Shown here piece after piece: positions 6,916 to 55,169 of a DNA stretch of 64,000 bases (positions within the stretch are counted from its first letter, which is position 1; each line of letters begins with the position of its first letter). Made by a program: the position numbers and the translations under genes. The DNA is from Candidatus Falkowbacteria bacterium (GTDB taxonomy: Bacteria > Patescibacteriota > Patescibacteriia > UBA11705 > JABHMO01), in contig JABHAL010000004.1 in NCBI GenBank assembly GCA_018674305.1, positions 256,446-320,445 of the forward strand, read 5' to 3'. The notes below the pieces were generated by a model that saw nothing but the letters and a program-made list of their open reading frames with translations, did no database searches and was not told where the DNA came from.

Positions 6916-7104
6916 AATATTTTTAAATCCTAACTCCTAAACTTTAAATTCTAAACAATTTTTAATTACAAATTTTTAAATTTTAATAATTTGAGTTTGT
7001 TTAGGGTTTATATATTAGGTTTTAGAACTTATCGTTCATTAAGAGTTAAGCTTATTCTATTATAGCAGATTTGTCAATCCTGTCATTCTATAAGATGGGG
7101 TATC

Positions 7105-14020: not shown

Positions 14021-14107
14021 TATACATATAACATGTAACATGTGACATGTAACATCAATTTTAGTGGTGATACATGATACATGATATATGATACATGATT
14101 ATAAAAT
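14021..14107. repeat. rpoB-rpoC spacer built from short tandem motifs: ACATGT x3 and ATACATGAT x4
   Basis: Read directly from the sequence. Confidence 0.6.
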
Positions 14108-20182: not shown

Positions 20183-20218
20183 ATTTTGATGTTCATTTAA
20201 CTGAAAAGGAGGATATCT

Positions 20219-20725
20219 TTGGGAAATAAAAAATGTAATGAACCGGATTGTCAAAAGCAATCGCAAAATGGTTTTTTCGGTTATTGCGTGGCGCATGGTC
20301 GTGAACAGGGAATTACAAAAAAATCTAATCCTGAATGTAAAGAAATAGGTTGTAAAAAAGTAGCAGTTTTTGGATTTGAAAACTATTGCATCGCGCATGG
20401 TCGTGAATATGGGATTACAAAAAAATCTAATCCTGAATGCAAGGAAAAGGGCTGTCAGAAAAGAAAGAAAGGTGGTTTTAGTGGATATTGTATTGCTCAC
20501 GGACGAGAGTATGGAGTTACGAAAATAAGCAGCATCTTATGTAAAGAAGAGGGTTGTCAGAAAAGAAGGAAAAGTGGTTTTAATGGATATTGTGTTGCTC
20601 ACGGACGAGCGTATGGAATTACGAAAAGATCTACTGGTCCATGTAAAGAAAAGGGTTGTCAAAAAAGAAGGCAAAGTGGTTTTAATGGATATTGTATTGC
20701 GCATGGTCGTGAACATGATGTTTAA
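20219..20725 (+). CDS. Tandem-repeat Cys/His-rich protein. Five ~37-aa repeats of C-x4-C-x(~10)-GFxGYC-x-AHGRExG[IV]TK, a putative zinc-binding repeat of unknown function
   Basis: Five near-identical repeats at protein level and ~111-bp repeats at DNA level; TTG start after a good SD; terminator at 20731-20760. Confidence 0.55.
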   Translation: MGNKKCNEPDCQKQSQNGFFGYCVAHGREQGITKKSNPECKEIGCKKVAVFGFENYCIAHGREYGITKKSNPECKEKGCQKRKKGGFSGYCIAHGREYGVTKISSILCKEEGCQKRRKSGFNGYCVAHGRAYGITKRSTGPCKEKGCQKRRQSGFNGYCIAHGREHDV

Positions 20726-24090: not shown

Positions 24091-26076
24091 ATGAATATTA
24101 CCGAGCTGGCCAGAAAATTAAAAGTCAATACTCAAGAACTCAGGGATAAATTACCAGAGATTGGTTTTGATATTGGTCAAAAGGCAATTAAGGTAGATGA
24201 TAAATTAGCATCTAGAATAATTCGATCTTGGCGTGAATTTCAGGACAGGGTAAGACAGAAAGATGCTTATGAGGCTATTACTAATAAAGATGAACAAGGC
24301 AAAGTAATATTAGACAAAAAAGTTGAAATTCCAGGTGTCTTAACAGTTAGAGATTTTGCTGAATTATTGAAATTACCAGTAACGATTGTTATTCAGGAAT
24401 TGATGAAAAATGGAGTAATGGCATCTTTGAATCAACGAATTGATTTTGATACAGCAGCAATTGTGGCAGCTGATTTAGGTTATGAATCATCAGAGATTAA
24501 TGCAGAAGAAAAAACTGAATTAGATAAAGCTCAGAAAGTTTCTGATAAATTAACAGCTGAAAAAGAAGAGGATCTAAAACATCGAGCACCAATTGTAGTT
24601 ATCATGGGGCATGTTGATCACGGTAAAACCAAATTATTGGATGCAATTCGATCAACTGACGTGGTTGCTGGTGAAGCTGGTGGGATTACTCAGCACATTG
24701 GTGCATATCAGGTTGAGAAAAAGGGTCGTATGATCACTTTTATAGATACTCCAGGACATGAAGCTTTTACTGCGATGCGTTCACGTGGTGCAAAGGTGGC
24801 AGATATTGCCGTTTTAGTTGTGGCTGCCAATGAGGGTGTTAAACCGCAAACAGTTGAAGCTCTAAAGATTGCTCAAGAAGCAAAAATTCCAATTTTGGTA
24901 GCTGTAAATAAAATTGATTTGCCTGATGCCAATCCAGATAAAGTAAAACAAGAATTAGGTAATTATAATCTAGTGGCAGAAGAATGGGGAGGTAAGACCG
25001 CCTTTATTGCAATTTCTGCAAAGTTTAATAAAAATATTGATGCTATTTTGGACCATTTGATTTTAATGGCGGACATGGAAGAAGCAACATTGCGTGCCAA
25101 TCCAGACGGTGATTTTGTTGGTAGTATCATTGAGTCGCATGTAAATCCAGGAGCAGGTCCTGTAGCTACGGTATTGGTTCGTAACGGCACATTGAAAGTA
25201 GGTGATCATCTAGTTATTGATGGTGTGTTGTATGGTAAGGTTAAAGTATTGAGAGATTATCATGGAAAAGAAATCGAAGATGCTAAGCTTTCCGTACCAG
25301 CTGAAATTTTAGGATTCAAGATTGCCCCAAAGGTTGGTGATGTCTTAGAAGTGACCGATGATCCAAAATCAGCAGCAAAAGCCAAGTCATATAAAATGCA
25401 AAAAGAAGAAACTTTCATTAAACATTCAGCTGAAGATACTGAAAGTAGTGATGATTCAAAAATTACACAAATAAACTTAATTCTTAGAGCCGATGTACTT
25501 GGATCACAGGAAGCAGTTATCGAATCATTAACTAAAATTCAAAATGCAGATATTAAAATTAAATTTGTTTCTAAGGGATTGGGAAATATAACAGAGAGTG
25601 ATGTTCAGAGTGCAGAAGCAACTGGCTCATTGATTTTAGGATTCAATGTTATGCCTTCAACAGCAGCTACTGATTTAGCAAAAGAAAGTAAGGTTGAAAT
25701 TGAAACCTTTAAAATAATTTATGAATTAATTGATGAGGTCAAAAAAAGACTGAAAGAATTAATCAAACCGGAAGTAGTTCGACGTGATTTAGGAAAATTA
25801 GAAGTAATAGAGATATTCAAGAAAGCTGATAAGATGCAGGTTGTTGGCGGAAAAGTTATTTCTGGAAAAGTTGAATCAAATTCAAAGGTTGCAGTTTTAC
25901 GTGGTGAGGAATTTATAACTTCAGGTAAGGTGACTCAATTGCAAGCTGGAAAACAAGAAGTTAAGGATTGTGTTAAGGGTCAAGAATGTGGCATTAGCTT
26001 TGAAGGTCAGCCTTTAATTGAAAAAGGTGATATTTTGGATATTTATCAAGAAGAAGAAGTTTTTAAATCGTTATAG
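24091..26076 (+). CDS. infB: Translation initiation factor IF-2
   Basis: G-domain motifs [17 protein letters not shown]; C-terminal IF-2 domains. Confidence 0.95.
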
Positions 26077-26106
26077 TAAATAGTAAATAGTAAACCCTAA
26101 CCAAGA

Positions 26107-26245
26107 GGTTTTTTTTGTTACTCCTGATTAATCACTCCCCTCCGTCATTCCGGGCCGTGACCCGGAATCTGTGTGATGATTCATGAGATCCCGGATCAAG
26201 TCCGGGACGACAAGTGAGGGCGCGGGTTTTTTTGTTACTCTTGAC
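26107..26245. repeat. GC-rich ~100-bp structured element in the infB/GGDEF intergenic region. It has two perfect hairpins and is flanked by a direct repeat TTTTTTTGTTACTCYTGA. Possible REP/MITE-like element or structured RNA
   Basis: Hairpins attccggg-ccgtga-cccggaat and cccgga-tcaag-tccggg; GC far above flanks; flanking direct repeats at 26107-26125 and 26226-26245. Confidence 0.5.
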
Positions 26246-26269
26246 AAAATTAAAGTGTTTTGGTAAAGT
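26241..26269 (+). promoter_or_regulatory. Promoter TTGACA-N17-TAAAGT for the GGDEF-like gene
   Basis: Read directly; SD gggagga precedes ATG 26315. Confidence 0.45.
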
Positions 26270-26314
26270 CTTTTATTGATAAGGACCTTTAAATGGACAC
26301 AGGGAGGATGTGAA

Positions 26315-27065
26315 ATGTCTAATCCTACAGATACAGGTACAATTAATTGGTATGAATTGTATCAGCAAACTGAAAGACTGATGAAAAAGACTAGTTCTAA
26401 GCTTAAAGAAGCTGATGACTTGATTGGCTCTATGAGAGTCAAGGAAGATGAATTACTGGCAGAAATTGAGCAATTGAAGGAGAAACTGGATGAGTTTCAA
26501 ACAGATCAGCTAACTGATTTGATGCCATCCAAATTGTTCAATAAAATTTTAGAGAAGTATTTCTTACAAGCGCAACGAAGTCTTCAAAGTGTAACCAATA
26601 GTTTGGGGAAAGCTCCGGGGAAGTCGTTAACAATTTTAGTTATTGATGTTGATCGATTCTCAATGATCAATGATCAATGATCAGTATGGAAGTGATTTTG
26701 GCGATCTGATTTTGCAATTCGTGGCAATGGTTATTAGTAAAAAGATTCGTGGATGTGACATTGTTACCAGAAAAGGTCAACAGTTCCGGGTAGCGCTGAT
26801 TGATTGTGATGCAAAAGCTGGTATTATGAAAGCGCAGGAAATTTCTAAGAGAATAAATCGTCAGGCTTTCGGTAGTGGGCAGGACGACGAGGTCAAAATT
26901 GCTGTTACCATCGGGATCGCTACTTATGATCATAATATGACTTTACCGCAACTGCGTGAAAAAGCATTTTGTGCAATGAAGCATGGCAAGGATGCAGGTT
27001 GTAGGAATTGTGTGTCTGTATATGGGAAGAGTGGAGACTATCAAATTGTCTTCAAGCCTAGCTAA
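26315..27065 (+). pseudogene. Degenerate GGDEF-domain (diguanylate cyclase-like, GQQF instead of GGEEF) protein with an N-terminal coiled coil. It is split into two ORFs by a frameshift at a (CAATGAT)x3 heptamer repeat; removing one unit restores a single in-frame protein
   Basis: ORF1 ends ...LVIDVDRFSMINDQ* and ORF2 begins MINDQYGSDFGDL..RKGQQFRVAL..IGIATYD (GGDEF fold); tandem heptamer at 26662-26684. Confidence 0.6.
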
Positions 27066-27076
27066 TTAAATGACCC

Positions 27077-27104
27077 AACCCGGAAAAATTTCCGGGTTTT
27101 TTAT
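27077..27104 (+). terminator. Intrinsic terminator (cccggaaa-aa-tttccggg + T-run)
   Basis: Perfect stem read directly. Confidence 0.7.
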
Positions 27105-27320
27105 TTCTCACAACTGTTCTTGACAAATAATTTTAAGATGATAAAATTGTATTACAATGTAATACACTGCCATGCGTGAAGGAATTACCAATAATCAATA
27201 ATCAAATCCTAAACAATTACCTAAATAAAAATAACCAAACTATAAATATTTTGAGAGTTGTGAATTGAATATTATAATTTGTTTATTATTTGGTGGTTGT
27301 GATTTGGTCATTATATAGTT

Positions 27321-27903: not shown

Positions 27904-28032
27904 TTTAAATCCTAATATCTAAATCCTAAATCCTAAACAAATTAAAATTTTCAAAATGCAAATATGGAGATGAATTTAGTGATTTTGAGTTTTGGGCCTT
28001 GTTTAGAGTTTAGCGATTAGAATTTAGAGTTT

Positions 28033-29001
28033 ATGAATAAATATGATGTCATTATAATCGGTGGTGCTTGTGCCGGATTGTCCGCGGCGGTTTACACCGC
28101 TCGACGTGAATTAAAAACTGTGGTTTTAACTAAAGATGTAGGTGGCCAGTTAGCTATTACTACTGAAGTTGAAAACTACCCAGGAACTTTGTCAATCAAA
28201 GGACCTGAATTAGCTATGAAATTCAAAGAACATGCTGAAAAGTCTGGAGCAGAAATTAAATTTGCTGAAGTTACAGAGATTCAAAAAAAGGAATCTGGCT
28301 ATGTTGTTAAAACCAAGGAGGAAGAGTATGAAGCCCCAGTGGTTATACTCGCTTTTGGCTTAAAACAGCGCCTGCTGGGTGTTCCAGGTGAAAAGGAATT
28401 AACTGGTAGAGGTGTGGCTTATTGTGCTACCTGTGATGGCCCGTTATTCAAAGGAAAAAGGGTTGCAGTTGCTGGTGGTGGTAATTCTGCTTTTGATGCA
28501 GCGGACTATTTAGCAGATTTGGCAGAAAAAGTTTATATGTTTATTCGCCGAGACGTGTATCGAGCTGAGGACACTTTAATTGAGGCAGTCAAAGCAAGAG
28601 ATAATGTTGAAATTATAGATTTTATAGAAGTTGAAGAATTTATTGGTGCTCATAAATTAGAAAAAGTGAAATTGATGAATAATGAAACCAAGGAAAAAAG
28701 CGAACTTGAACTGGAGGGTGTTTTTATTGAAATTGGCTGGGAAAGTCAAGTTAAACAAATTAAAGGACTATCTGAATTGGTTGAAGTTAGCGAACGTGGC
28801 TTTGTTGTTGTTGATAATGAAGGCAAAACAAAAGCTGACGGAATATTTGCTGCCGGAGATGTTACCGATACTCCATTCAAACAGGCTGTAATTTCAGCGG
28901 GTGACGGCGCCAAGGCAGCTATGGGCGCAGCAGTATACATTCAACGCTCAAGAGGGAGAGAGATTGGAGATGTTTTGAGTGATAGAGCTAAGCGAAAGTA
29001 A
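28033..29001 (+). CDS. trxB: Thioredoxin-disulfide reductase
   Basis: FAD motif GGACAGLSAA, redox CATCDG, NADPH motif GGGNSA. Confidence 0.9.
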   Translation: MNKYDVIIIGGACAGLSAAVYTARRELKTVVLTKDVGGQLAITTEVENYPGTLSIKGPELAMKFKEHAEKSGAEIKFAEVTEIQKKESGYVVKTKEEEYEAPVVILAFGLKQRLLGVPGEKELTGRGVAYCATCDGPLFKGKRVAVAGGGNSAFDAADYLADLAEKVYMFIRRDVYRAEDTLIEAVKARDNVEIIDFIEVEEFIGAHKLEKVKLMNNETKEKSELELEGVFIEIGWESQVKQIKGLSELVEVSERGFVVVDNEGKTKADGIFAAGDVTDTPFKQAVISAGDGAKAAMGAAVYIQRSRGREIGDVLSDRAKRK

Positions 29002-45963: not shown

Positions 45964-47109
45964 TTATTTTAAATTTTTATATATTTGTAAAGTTTGTTCA
46001 GCGCATTTTCTCCAGTGAAATCTTTCAACATTATATTTTGCCTTATCAATTAATTCTTGGTTTGTTTTTTTATCAGTTAAGACCAGATTAATTTGTTTGG
46101 CCATTTCCTCAATATTTTTTGGGTCAAAGAATAGGGCAGACTCTCCAAGTGTTTCCGGCATGGATGAGGTGTTGGTTGAGACAACGGGACAGCCACAGTT
46201 TTGAGCTTCTATTCCGATTAAACCAAAGCCTTCAATAAAGGATGGAACAACAAAGGCGGAAGCTCCATTGTAAATCGCCGGTAATTCATCATCTTCAATA
46301 AAGCCTGTGGCAATAATGTCGTGCTTAAAAGGGGATCTATTAATTTCGTCCTGAACCTTTGTATAATGTAAATCCTCTCGACCACCAAGTACTAATTGGA
46401 TATCCAAATTATGCTTTTTCTTTAGTAAATTAAAAGCTTGGATTAATCCTTCAATGTTCTTGTGGGAACGCCAGACACTAACGAAAAATATATACGGTTT
46501 CGTGATACCGAATTTTTCTTTAACTGTACTAATTATACCACTATTTTCAATAATTTTAAAACGTTCGTCCACACCATGATGGATAACTTCAATTTTTTCG
46601 GAATTAATATTGAAATGTCTAACTATATCACGCTTGGTGCTATTGGAAACTGCAATAATTTTACGTGATTTGTGCATTGTTGACTTAAAGACCGTGCGAT
46701 AGGCCCACTGTCTGAATCCGGATTTTGCTTTGTGGCCAGGATAGTAAAAGGGAGTTATGTCATGAATGGTGCAAATTGATTTTTTGCGATATAAAATTGG
46801 TGAATTGAAGTGGGGGTAGTGGATTAGGTCAAATTTATGCTTCATTAATTCCAAAATGAAACTTGTTTGTTCTGTCAAAGTGTAATGTTGAACTTTGGTT
46901 AGCACTTTTGTAACCCGTTCGTTCGGTGGATTGAATCTCGAAAACTCAGGTTCACGCAAGAACAAGATATATTCATTAGTTTTATCCAACATGAAAAGTT
47001 CATCAGTTAATTTCTGAATGTAAGTTCCGATTCCACTGAATTGTGAGGCGCCATACATGCGCGCGTCGATTGCTATTATCATATTCTTAGTTATTGTTCC
47101 TGAATTCAT
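45964..47109 (-). CDS. Glycosyltransferase family 4
   Basis: GT4 signature EGFGLIGIEAQNCGCPVVSTNTSSMPE. Confidence 0.85.
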   Translation of the reverse strand: MNSGTITKNMIIAIDARMYGASQFSGIGTYIQKLTDELFMLDKTNEYILFLREPEFSRFNPPNERVTKVLTKVQHYTLTEQTSFILELMKHKFDLIHYPHFNSPILYRKKSICTIHDITPFYYPGHKAKSGFRQWAYRTVFKSTMHKSRKIIAVSNSTKRDIVRHFNINSEKIEVIHHGVDERFKIIENSGIISTVKEKFGITKPYIFFVSVWRSHKNIEGLIQAFNLLKKKHNLDIQLVLGGREDLHYTKVQDEINRSPFKHDIIATGFIEDDELPAIYNGASAFVVPSFIEGFGLIGIEAQNCGCPVVSTNTSSMPETLGESALFFDPKNIEEMAKQINLVLTDKKTNQELIDKAKYNVERFHWRKCAEQTLQIYKNLK

Positions 47110-47235
47110 TCGGGGTAGCTCCTTTGGCTATTTTCATATTTTTAGTTATTGTTCCTGAATTTATTCGGGGTAGCTCCTTTGGCGATTTTCATATCCTCAG
47201 TTATTATCCCTGAATTCATTCAGGGTACCTCCTTT
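47075..47235. repeat. Three tandem ~55-bp REP-like units, each holding a small hairpin (cctgaat-tc-attcRgg) plus the SD and first ~13 codons of the GT4 gene. The third unit supplies the C-terminus of the transposase-like ORF
   Basis: Direct alignment of units at 47075-47129, 47130-47184 and 47185-47235. Confidence 0.7.
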
Positions 47236-47774: not shown

Positions 47775-47870
47775 TTATTTGGTAGGCCCAAATGAATTTG
47801 GGGGTAATTGTTTAGGATAATCCCAAATTGTTCTGAATTGTACATGCGACGGTCTATAGCGATTTTTACA
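47775..47870 (-). pseudogene. Decayed duplicate of the GT4 N-terminus (..VKIAIDRRMYNSEQFGII..)
   Basis: Translation of the minus strand resembles MIIAIDARMYGASQFSGIGTY of the intact GT4; preceded by two more REP-like units at 47862-47950. Confidence 0.35.
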
Positions 47871-47950
47871 TTCTTAGCAATTATACCTGAATTCATTCGG
47901 GACATTATTTTCAGTTATTATCCCTGAATTTATTCGGGGTACCTCCTTCA
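47862..47950. repeat. Two further REP-like units homologous to 47075-47235
   Basis: Sequence similarity (attttcagttattatccctgaatttattcggggtacctcc). Confidence 0.55.
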
Positions 47951-48011
47951 TACAAGGTTTCTAAAAATATCTTTAAGCATTTCCAAATTACTAATTACAG
48001 ATTACTAATTA

Positions 48012-52812: not shown

Positions 52813-53955
52813 TTAAGATTTAGCGGAGAACTTTTTTATTTCCTGCAAATAATCTTGAGCAGTTTGATACCAGTGAATATCCTTTGATTTTTGTAAACCT
52901 GCGGCTATATATTGTTTGGCTAGCTTTGAATTAGTCATTTGCTTCATGGCACTGTAGAGATCGTTTGTGTCAGTTGGATTAATTAAAAGGGCAGCTTGTT
53001 GGCAAATTTCTGACATGGATGAATTGTTTGAGGTAATGACGGGACAGCCACAGGCCATTGCTTCAATTGGGGGAAATCCAAACCCCTCATAAAATGAAGG
53101 ATACACAAACATAGAAGCTAAATTGTAAAAATATCGTTTCTCAGAATCTTTGATGTATTTAGTGAAGATAATATTTTTTGACTGTTGTTTGATGATTTTT
53201 TTATAATGCCAACCTGGTTTACCGGCGATTACTAAACTATATTCAGGATGTTCCTGATGAAATAAGTTAAAAGCCTTAATTAGTGAAGTGAGGTTTTTTC
53301 TTGGCTCAATCGTGCCGAGAAACAAAATGAATTTCTCTGGTAGTTTGTATTTATTTTTTATTTTTTTAAATTTAGGATCTTTCGGATTTAAAATTCTATA
53401 ATTCTGAGAAATGCCGGAGTATATAGTTTGAATTTTCTTTGGAGCAATTTTGTAAATGTCGATTAAATCTTGCTTGGTGTTTTTTGAAACAGAAATAACT
53501 TGATCTGCTTGCTGAAAAAGTTTATTAGGATTTACAAACCAATGCCATAGTTTACGTTTGAAAGATAGAAATTCAGGAAAAATTTCAAAACTGAGATCAT
53601 GAGCGGTGATAATGTAGGGACAGTTTGTTTTGAAAAATGAAATATTAGGAAATAAGAATAAATCGATTTTCGAAGATTTGTATTTGTGAATAATTATTTG
53701 ATCAAGTTTTGGGTGAGAAAATATCTTTAACGTTAAGTTGAGTACCTTGTTGGACATTTTGAACTCACAATAATGTACATTGTCTTTGGGAAACTTAGGA
53801 ATATATTTGTTAACCTTTTGTCTGGAATTATAAAAAAGATAGTACTGGTTGGTACTATCTACTTCAAATAAATGTTTTAGGAGATAAAAAGTGTATTCGC
53901 CAACGCCAGTCAGTTCGCGTTCCATTAAGCAACGGATGTCGATACCTATATTCAT
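52813..53955 (-). CDS. Glycosyltransferase family 4
   Basis: EGFGFPPIEAMACGCPVITSNNSSMSE. Confidence 0.85.
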   Translation of the reverse strand: MNIGIDIRCLMERELTGVGEYTFYLLKHLFEVDSTNQYYLFYNSRQKVNKYIPKFPKDNVHYCEFKMSNKVLNLTLKIFSHPKLDQIIIHKYKSSKIDLFLFPNISFFKTNCPYIITAHDLSFEIFPEFLSFKRKLWHWFVNPNKLFQQADQVISVSKNTKQDLIDIYKIAPKKIQTIYSGISQNYRILNPKDPKFKKIKNKYKLPEKFILFLGTIEPRKNLTSLIKAFNLFHQEHPEYSLVIAGKPGWHYKKIIKQQSKNIIFTKYIKDSEKRYFYNLASMFVYPSFYEGFGFPPIEAMACGCPVITSNNSSMSEICQQAALLINPTDTNDLYSAMKQMTNSKLAKQYIAAGLQKSKDIHWYQTAQDYLQEIKKFSAKS

Positions 53956-54074
53956 AAACTCTAAATTCTAATAAATAAACTCTAAACAATTTTTCAAATA
54001 CAAATTTATAAATATCAAAACGTTAATTTGGGTTTTAAATTTTTAATAATTATAATTTGTTCAGGATTTAGAAA

Positions 54075-55169
54075 TTAGGGATTGGGATTTAATTTGTTGA
54101 CTATAAATTCTTTTATTTTTTGTTTAAAAATATTTACATCAAACTGTAAAGCATGTTCTCTAATTGTTTGAGGATTGTAATCTTCAATCTTAAAGCTTAA
54201 AACTTTATCGGCAAGATCTTCCCAGATTTGTTCCTCGAAAAGAGTACCTGTCTTGCCTTCGATTACAGTTTCTGTTGCTCCGCCTGCTCGATAGGCAATT
54301 ACTGGGCGACCACTGGCCATGGCTTCGACAGCAGTGATACCAAAATCTTCAAGTTGTGGATTAAGGAAGGCTTTGCATTTGCTATAAAGAGCAATCTTTT
54401 TTTGTTCCGGCACCTTACCCAAGAATTCAATATTGTTTTTAGCTATTTTTTTTAAATTTTTCAATTGTGGACCATCACCAAATATTTTCAGAGGTAGATT
54501 TAATCGGTTAAAAGCTTGAACAATAAGATCAAACCGTTTATAGCCGACCAGACGACCACCAGCTAGAAAATAATCTTCGACTTTATCAGTAACCTTGAAT
54601 TTGTGAGTGTCCACTGGTGGATAAATTACAGTACTTTCCTTGTTGTAGTATTTTTTTATTCGTTTTTGAACTTCTTTTGAGTTGGCGATAAAGTGATCGA
54701 CTCGGTCAGCTGCGATTTTGTCCCACTGGCGAAGTTTAGTTAACGATATTGGTAACATCTTTTTGATTAAAAAATTCTGATTCAAATCTTTCAGATAGCC
54801 GTGAGTATTAGTCCACAAGAATCGTGGTGGAGTATGACAATAGCAGATGTGTGTTGAGGTTGGTCCAGGTATTACGCCCTTTGAAAAGATTGAAGAGCTG
54901 GATAATATCAACTTGTATTTTGTAACTGGATGGTGCTCAGTTGCAGCTGGCATAAAATTCAAATACCATTGGTACTTGGAAACACCAAAAGGAAAGTTTT
55001 GTAAAAATGAAGTATGTATCTTTTTTTTGGCAAAATCCTGGGCAACATTTTTCTTATCATAAACCAGCGTGTACATTGAGCTTTTAGGAAAAATATCCAT
55101 AAAGGCTTTGGCTACACGCTCAGCGCCTCCGTCCTGCGTTAGGTGGTCATGAACTAGAGCTACATTCAT
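54075..55169 (-). CDS. Glycosyltransferase family 4
   Basis: FGITAVEAMASGRPVIAYRAGGATETV. Confidence 0.85.
   Translation of the reverse strand: MNVALVHDHLTQDGGAERVAKAFMDIFPKSSMYTLVYDKKNVAQDFAKKKIHTSFLQNFPFGVSKYQWYLNFMPAATEHHPVTKYKLILSSSSIFSKGVIPGPTSTHICYCHTPPRFLWTNTHGYLKDLNQNFLIKKMLPISLTKLRQWDKIAADRVDHFIANSKEVQKRIKKYYNKESTVIYPPVDTHKFKVTDKVEDYFLAGGRLVGYKRFDLIVQAFNRLNLPLKIFGDGPQLKNLKKIAKNNIEFLGKVPEQKKIALYSKCKAFLNPQLEDFGITAVEAMASGRPVIAYRAGGATETVIEGKTGTLFEEQIWEDLADKVLSFKIEDYNPQTIREHALQFDVNIFKQKIKEFIVNKLNPNP

Follow-up and report, generated by a model that had tools for sequence, protein, structure and literature searches.

Two adjacent open reading frames lie on the forward strand of the window, by which we mean the whole 64,000 nt stretch of DNA that was analysed. 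They are the frames reported in a preliminary description made from the sequence, and both were found at 26315-26680 and 26670-27065. The features of the locus are as follows.

26241..26269, + strand: promoter-like site, TTGACA-17 nt-TAAAGT with TG before the second hexamer; putative, from a consensus scan, and kept in the sister-species locus (L005)
26302..26308, + strand: Shine-Dalgarno sequence GGGAGGA, 6 nt 5' of the ATG at 26315, by direct reading; the same sequence stands in L005
26315..26680, + strand: ORF1, 121 aa, with the conserved N-terminal segment, the long coiled-coil helix, alpha0 and beta1 (IDVDRF), ending at a TGA within repeat unit 3
26660..26683, + strand: perfect heptamer tandem repeat (CAATGAT)x3 with partial flanks, 3.4 copies, from TRF, shuffles and the ortholog alignment
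26670..27065, + strand: ORF2, 131 aa, the GGDEF remainder from helix alpha1 on, without beta1 and without a Shine-Dalgarno sequence of its own (Pfam GGDEF, 51.6 bits)
26748..26759, + strand: R-G-C-D codons, the RxxD I-site motif five residues upstream of the signature, from family alignments
26769..26786, + strand: R-K-G-Q-Q-F codons, the degenerate counterpart of RYGGEEF, from alignments to solved diguanylate cyclases and to the family; the same in the sister species
27077..27106, + strand: intrinsic-terminator-like hairpin AACCCGGAAA/TTTCCGGGTT followed by a T run, also present in L005

The ATG of ORF2 is placed 8 nt before the ORF1 stop, and the two frames overlap by 11 nt. An in-frame TTG at 26276 is an alternative start of ORF1 besides the ATG at 26315, and ORF1 is called as a separate gene in NCBI, JGI, ENA and Logan records. 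The promoter-like site, the Shine-Dalgarno sequence and the terminator are all intact and conserved relative to L005. No Rfam matches were obtained in the 64-kb window at gathering thresholds.

At the break between the frames a perfect three-unit heptamer had been described. The repeat was found as claimed, while its coordinates (26662-26684) were off by one or two bases; by direct reading the CAATGAT units lie at 26661-26667, 26668-26674 and 26675-26681, and TRF returned a period-7 array with 100% matches at 26660-26683. None of 100 dinucleotide-preserving shuffles contained a perfect heptamer of at least three copies, as against three in the real window. Deletion of one unit joins the frames as ...DVDRFSMINDQYGSDFGDL... 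(also given as ...IDVDRFSMINDQYGSDFGDL...) and leaves an open product of 247 aa, in agreement with the earlier claim that the loss of 7 bp fuses them cleanly. Read in the frame of ORF1, the third unit is CAA-TGA and brings a stop into any array of three or more units; the frame is open at exactly two units only, as all longer arrays run into this TGA. In the two-unit form the codons for S-M-I-N-D-Q constitute a perfect 2.4-copy heptamer repeat, tCAATGAT-CAATGAT-CA. A genetic code in which TGA is recoded was dismissed, as TAA and TAG stops also follow downstream in the ORF1 frame.

The fused protein scored 75.1 bits (E 6.9e-21) against the Pfam GGDEF profile (PF00990, curated cut-off 23.8 bits) and covered profile positions 3-158 of 161. 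ORF1 alone gave 20.2 bits, which is under the cut-off, and the match of ORF2 alone was confined to profile positions 46-158. Among solved GGDEF proteins the fused protein was matched by sequence to 5euh (E 3.6e-13) and to DosC 4zve. An AlphaFold2 model built with a 67-sequence alignment reached pLDDT 94.1 and pTM 0.84, and superseded a run with a two-sequence alignment (pLDDT 52). When this model was compared to the PDB with Foldseek, the top 50 matches were all GGDEF domains. Superposition on solved GGDEF domains gave TM 0.85-0.90, as with DosC 4zvh_A (TM 0.90, rmsd 2.6 A) and GcbC 5euh_A (TM 0.88). The GGDEF fold of the fused translation was thus recovered by sequence, profile and structure comparison, and the proposed N-terminal coiled coil corresponds to a long helix at residues 12-59 of the model. 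This helix is followed by alpha0 (72-95), beta1 (105-112) and helices from residue 115. ORF1 ends at residue 121, just after beta1, and everything beyond this strand is cut from its product. In the model beta1 is the central strand and carries the invariant Asp of the D-x-D segment, and it is missing from ORF2.

The signature RKGQQF, described before as degenerate, indeed aligns with RYGGEEF with both signature acidic residues being Gln. Behind beta1 the F-K pair has become F-S, its Lys being replaced by Ser. According to the alignments the guanine-contacting N119 and D128 are kept in the fused protein, as is the RxxD I-site (R143-G-C-D146), which does not vary in the alignment of the family and hardly varies among 67 GGDEF proteins. 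As the signature acidic residues are lost and the I-site is kept, the fused protein is predicted to have no diguanylate cyclase activity and may bind nucleotide. Judged from these residues, the ancestral protein would most likely have served as a receptor or adaptor that binds nucleotide, and not as a diguanylate cyclase. No GGDEF paralog was found elsewhere in the 64-kb window; the neighbouring genes hold no domains related to c-di-GMP, and the vicinity is free of diguanylate cyclases, phosphodiesterases and exopolysaccharide operons.

PelD and PopA are c-di-GMP receptors in which a degenerate GGDEF domain has an intact I-site. For degenerate GGDEF proteins in which RxxD is retained, a role as c-di-GMP receptor has commonly been proposed or demonstrated (PMC4125290). 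PssE/Lmo0531, a predicted receptor (PMC4125290), resembles the fused protein in that the catalytic acidic residues are gone and the RxxD five residues upstream is kept, and our gene has in common with the degenerate receptor class that the degeneracy is conserved under purifying selection. It differs from receptors of the PssE/Lmo0531 type in that the domain partner is just a coiled coil, the gene is broken and ligand binding is only predicted. The combination of a coiled coil and a GGDEF domain is also found in Caulobacter DgcB (PDB 6ttr; Foldseek E 1.6e-13, TM 0.79 over the target), which however is an active cyclase with a canonical motif and is only about 24% identical.

A search of a collection of 5.8 billion clusters yielded P0001 as the sole close homolog, at 78% identity; the same search also missed the window's own ORF1 and ORF2 representatives. 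The P0001 gene belongs to the sister-species locus L005, is syntenic (between infB and the RHH, thioredoxin and thioredoxin-reductase genes) and is uninterrupted. A comparison of repeat copy number with orthologs had been suggested, and the intact gene of this sole close ortholog has two imperfect units (CAATGAT-CAACGAT) in the context TTC-TCAATGAT-CAACGAT-AAG, with a 7-nt gap relative to the window. It is a synonymous C in the Asn codon that makes the repeat of the sister species imperfect. From this intact, syntenic ortholog it follows that two units is the ancestral state and that the window lineage gained one 7-bp unit.

An exhaustive search of representatives added a small set of full-length proteins of the same architecture (P0007-P0011, 236-262 aa), the other family members altogether being about 235-262 aa long. 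The motifs of P0007-P0010 are also degenerate (KGQRF, YTGKRF, YKESKI and YDGQRF), the more distant P0011, P0027 and P0030 have a canonical GGDEF or GGEEF, and P0019 has a near-canonical GGEEL. Neither R143 nor D146 varies anywhere in the family, the members with canonical motifs included, and all family members other than the window gene are one uninterrupted protein. Searches of the GTDB species representatives with N-terminal patterns gave no confirmed relatives, and those with domain patterns gave distant GGDEF proteins only (27-44% identity) and no more close orthologs.

The N-terminal segment 'DTGTI-Y--LY' is conserved across the family, which indicates that translation starts upstream of Met23. 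At L005 5935-6000, the counterpart of window positions 26315-26380, the ortholog has ATA where the window has the ATG start. This locus, a single contig at 6x coverage, is without a canonical in-frame start upstream of Met23, yet the 22 codons that precede this Met show coding conservation (dN/dS 0.15). Either the ortholog initiates at the non-canonical ATA, or the N-terminal segment was lost in that copy.

Further we looked at the repeat in the available records of the species, as the preliminary description had proposed searching strain variants for two- and three-unit alleles. Only three-unit alleles were seen: exactly three units stand in 13 of 13 distinct records, which in a nearly clonal population, where several samples may share one site, are to be counted as separate assemblies and not as independent evolutionary replicates, each assembly showing the majority allele only. 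The records came from JGI (five samples), ENA (six), NCBI (two MAGs) and Logan (one), 13 being counted as distinct. They are 99.92-100% identical to the window and, except for L020, 100.000% identical over up to 12.4 kb. L020 differs by two SNPs, one of them a synonymous change in ORF2, and as it still has three units the lesion should be older than that divergence. In the assembly collection 72 blocks list the exact ORF2 product, which was seen on 33 contigs, and ORF1 products are found on 18, 17 and 12 contigs; the NCBI source name for these contigs is Candidatus Falkowbacteria bacterium, a CPR lineage. The fused protein, read from three in-frame starts (247, 260 and 225 aa), had no exact match among about 15 billion proteins, a look-up in which all three split products, used as positive controls, were found. 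A DNA scan of metagenome contigs for the two-unit allele gave no hits and was given no weight, since a length-tolerant control pattern, which does match the window and the loci L001-L005, gave none either. Longer heptamer arrays nearby (4-5 units) are likewise invariant within the species. One ENA scaffold (L018, HAWL17-1_SAMN05224527_METAG-scaffold_20797) joins a gene for a ZIP-type metal transporter to the locus in its positions 1-721; the junction lies 30 nt before the infB stop, the ZIP-type gene has no match in the window, and the scaffold is most likely chimeric.

That the third unit is an error of sequencing or assembly, the true genome having two, is scarcely credible to us. Short tandem repeats can mis-assemble and some of the contigs have a coverage of only about 3-4x. 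Against this, the identical three-unit sequence was delivered from different samples by several pipelines (JGI, MEGAHIT-style k141, SPAdes NODE, NCBI MAGs and Logan), and as the 24-nt repeat lies far inside a single read, assembly cannot inflate it.

The broken arrangement, being the consensus in all assemblies, with both frames still open and the ORF2 ATG overlapping the ORF1 stop region by 11 nt, could also be read as a working design. ORF2 might then be translated by coupling or re-initiation, with the two pieces coming together again afterwards, or ribosomes might shift by +1 in a programmed manner at CAA-UGA and make one full-length protein with two extra residues. We regard this as highly unlikely, since there is no Shine-Dalgarno sequence before ORF2 and ORF2 is without beta1 and its invariant D-x-D Asp. 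For recoding there is neither a slippery sequence nor an upstream Shine-Dalgarno-like stimulator of the prfB type. By the reasoning used for +1 frameshifting of that type, the tRNA-Gln on CAA would re-pair poorly on AAU. Moreover, the gene is uninterrupted in the sister species and in all other family members, and a split design would have to be brand new.

To date the break relative to the species split we compared the two halves of the gene to the ortholog, as whole-gene pairwise dS was saturated at synonymous sites, and added a relative-rate count. The ORF1 (N-terminal) part gave a dN/dS of 0.073, and for the ORF2 (C-terminal) part dN was 0.098 with dS saturated; the neighbours infB, trx and trxB have dN/dS of 0.04-0.06. 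With P0007-P0010 as outgroups, 13 derived amino-acid changes fall on the window lineage and 14 on the intact ortholog. Neither frame holds secondary stops or indels, though 4.8% of the possible point substitutions would make a stop. There is thus no sign of relaxed selection or further decay in the form of rate acceleration, extra lesions or damaged expression signals. The low dN/dS, the equal relative rate and the lack of secondary lesions together show that the frameshift is recent, the gene having been under purifying selection for nearly all the time since the species split. The lack of further decay is also the main reason why reversibility has to be taken seriously.

The preliminary description had left two options, a recent pseudogene or an ON/OFF contingency locus. 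In the latter the tract would switch back and forth, ON at two units and OFF at three, and the gene would be kept as a reversible option. This has some appeal, as the unit of 7 nt is not a multiple of three and lies inside an ORF, where a change in unit number shifts the frame, and as the loss of one unit restores a protein that was under purifying selection until recently and whose expression signals are intact. Three units is also the lowest, deliberately permissive, threshold for heptamers in a Haemophilus survey (PMC2651432), and short three-unit repeats are known hotspots of gain and loss (PMC12606429). The population data do not support it, however. There is zero copy-number polymorphism in the 13 distinct records, no ON allele appears in a collection that contains the OFF products, and the nearby arrays of 4-5 units are invariant within the species as well. 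The tract has one ON length only, with the TGA in unit 3 closing all longer arrays, while proven heptamer switches are long and highly polymorphic. In neuO the heptamer tract varies from 3 to 53 units among genomes, and one culture held cells with 20, 21 and 22 units (PMC13001214). The neuO gene of E. coli K1 shares with ours a heptanucleotide repeat in the coding sequence whose unit number sets the frame; it differs in being ON at every multiple of three, whereas here the units are three and invariant and the sole ON length is two. The product is in addition a cytoplasmic signalling-type protein with no surface or restriction-modification function. On balance we consider a phase-variation switch unlikely.

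A narrower form would be a minimal reversible switch, in which almost all of the population is OFF and rare two-unit revertants re-express a receptor-only GGDEF protein with an I-site. We find this distinctly improbable. If true, an episymbiont that has no cyclase of its own could use the revertant protein to perceive a nucleotide signal coming from its host.

We suggest instead that the locus is most likely a young frameshift pseudogene of a degenerate GGDEF gene, fixed at the consensus level; the intact two-unit ortholog, the three units in all 13 records and the absence of the fused protein support this option of the earlier description, and by the refuting condition which that description set they favour a simple pseudogene. 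The ancestral gene encoded some 247 aa, in which a coiled coil at the N-terminus was joined to a GGDEF domain whose signature (RKGQQF) is catalytically degenerate while its RxxD I-site is intact, and the codons S-M-I-N-D-Q by chance made up the perfect 2.4-copy repeat. Slipped-strand mispairing in replication on this repeat would have added one 7-bp unit, and the +7 shifts the frame so that the CAA-TGA of unit 3 halts translation just after beta1. What follows is a remnant, ORF2, in the +1 frame. As ORF2 is without a ribosome-binding site and without the central beta-strand of the fold, no functional protein is to be expected from it. Slippage as the mechanism, the loss of function of the fragments and the ancestral role as a receptor are points that we infer.

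With respect to slippage, intergenic arrays differ between the window and the sister species by whole 7-nt units, the window's array behind trx being longer by one unit and that behind infB shorter by two, which shows that 7-bp slippage is recurrent in the lineage. A classic parallel is the (CTGG)3 of lacI, a hotspot at which one unit is gained or lost (Farabaugh et al. 1978, summarised in PMC12606429). Both are short, perfect three-unit coding repeats in which slippage by one unit leads to a frameshift that in principle can revert. The present repeat differs from that of lacI in that the unit is 7 nt and not 4, in that the ancestral state is two units and the observed form is the product of a gain, and in that it is seen in natural populations and not in a mutation screen. 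It should be noted, as a counterpoint to the pseudogene reading, that the loss of a single unit would fully restore the gene, that the lesion is in principle reversible, and that a minority of two-unit revertant cells may be hidden behind the majority allele of the assemblies.

Read as a pseudogene, the locus calls for a correction of annotation. Public records list the halves as separate genes ('hypothetical protein' and 'diguanylate cyclase'), when they are probably the halves of a single gene that broke recently and that would not have encoded a cyclase in any case. The locus would then document gene loss in progress in a CPR lineage with a reduced genome, in which 7-bp slippage is recurrent. 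Events of this kind are well known, and the locus adds one more instance, ordinary in itself and useful as a clean worked example. The small subfamily that combines a coiled coil and a degenerate GGDEF domain with a conserved I-site may merit biochemical study.

Upstream of the gene, a perfect (ATAGTAA)x3 array at 26073-26094 starts at the infB stop, and the version in the sister species is degenerate and 14 nt (two units) longer. Between the infB terminator and the promoter of the GGDEF gene lies a GC-rich insert of about 117 bp (26128-26244), flanked by 21-nt direct repeats (26107-26127 and 26224-26244, 90% identical). It is missing from the sister locus and single-copy in the window, and it folds to a long imperfect hairpin (-42.9 kcal/mol, z -2.0). 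For this insert no Rfam family was found, only sub-threshold matches at chance level. A small mobile or palindromic element that duplicated its target is one possible reading.

Several other repeats were observed in the window. Paired inverted heptamer arrays of about 4.6 units are situated in the intergenic spacers at 27906-28035 (+), 53955-54080 (-), 6923-7025 (+) and 14024-14099 (+). These pair into long hairpins with a bulge at every seventh nucleotide, and their RNA folds range from -19 to -29 kcal/mol (z -2.2 to -3.5). One hairpin family has three copies in the window. Its left arm (TAAATCC-type) comes after the upstream stop codon, and its right arm, GTTTAGA GTTTAGn nATTAGA ATTTAGA GTTTATG, runs into the start codon of the following gene, where a Shine-Dalgarno sequence is lacking. 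The spacer of an rpoB-rpoC-like pair has an equal hairpin design made of other units (ACATGTA / TGATACA). The spacer arrays resemble the intergenic TAACTGA heptamers found upstream of start codons in Beggiatoaceae (PMC4679880); they differ from these in their units and in that the arrays pair into hairpins. Such heptamer-periodic intergenic hairpins may be of more interest than the GGDEF locus.

On the reverse strand at 47072-47235 there are three tandem 55-nt units, 88% alike, with related copies near 47870-47960. Each unit has an AAGGAG ribosome-binding site, a CCCCGAATGAATTCAGG palindrome and a mini-ORF of 16 codons (MKIAKGATPNEFRNNN, then a stop). The units lie immediately 5' of the start of the gene ending at 45967, and resemble a 5' leader duplicated in tandem. 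At 20201-20722 (+), finally, an ORF of 174 codons contains about 4.2 copies of a Cys/His-rich repeat of 34 aa (GYCIAHGREYGITKKSNPECKEKGCQKRKKSGFN), with a period of 102 nt in the DNA; this repeat may be a zinc-binding module.
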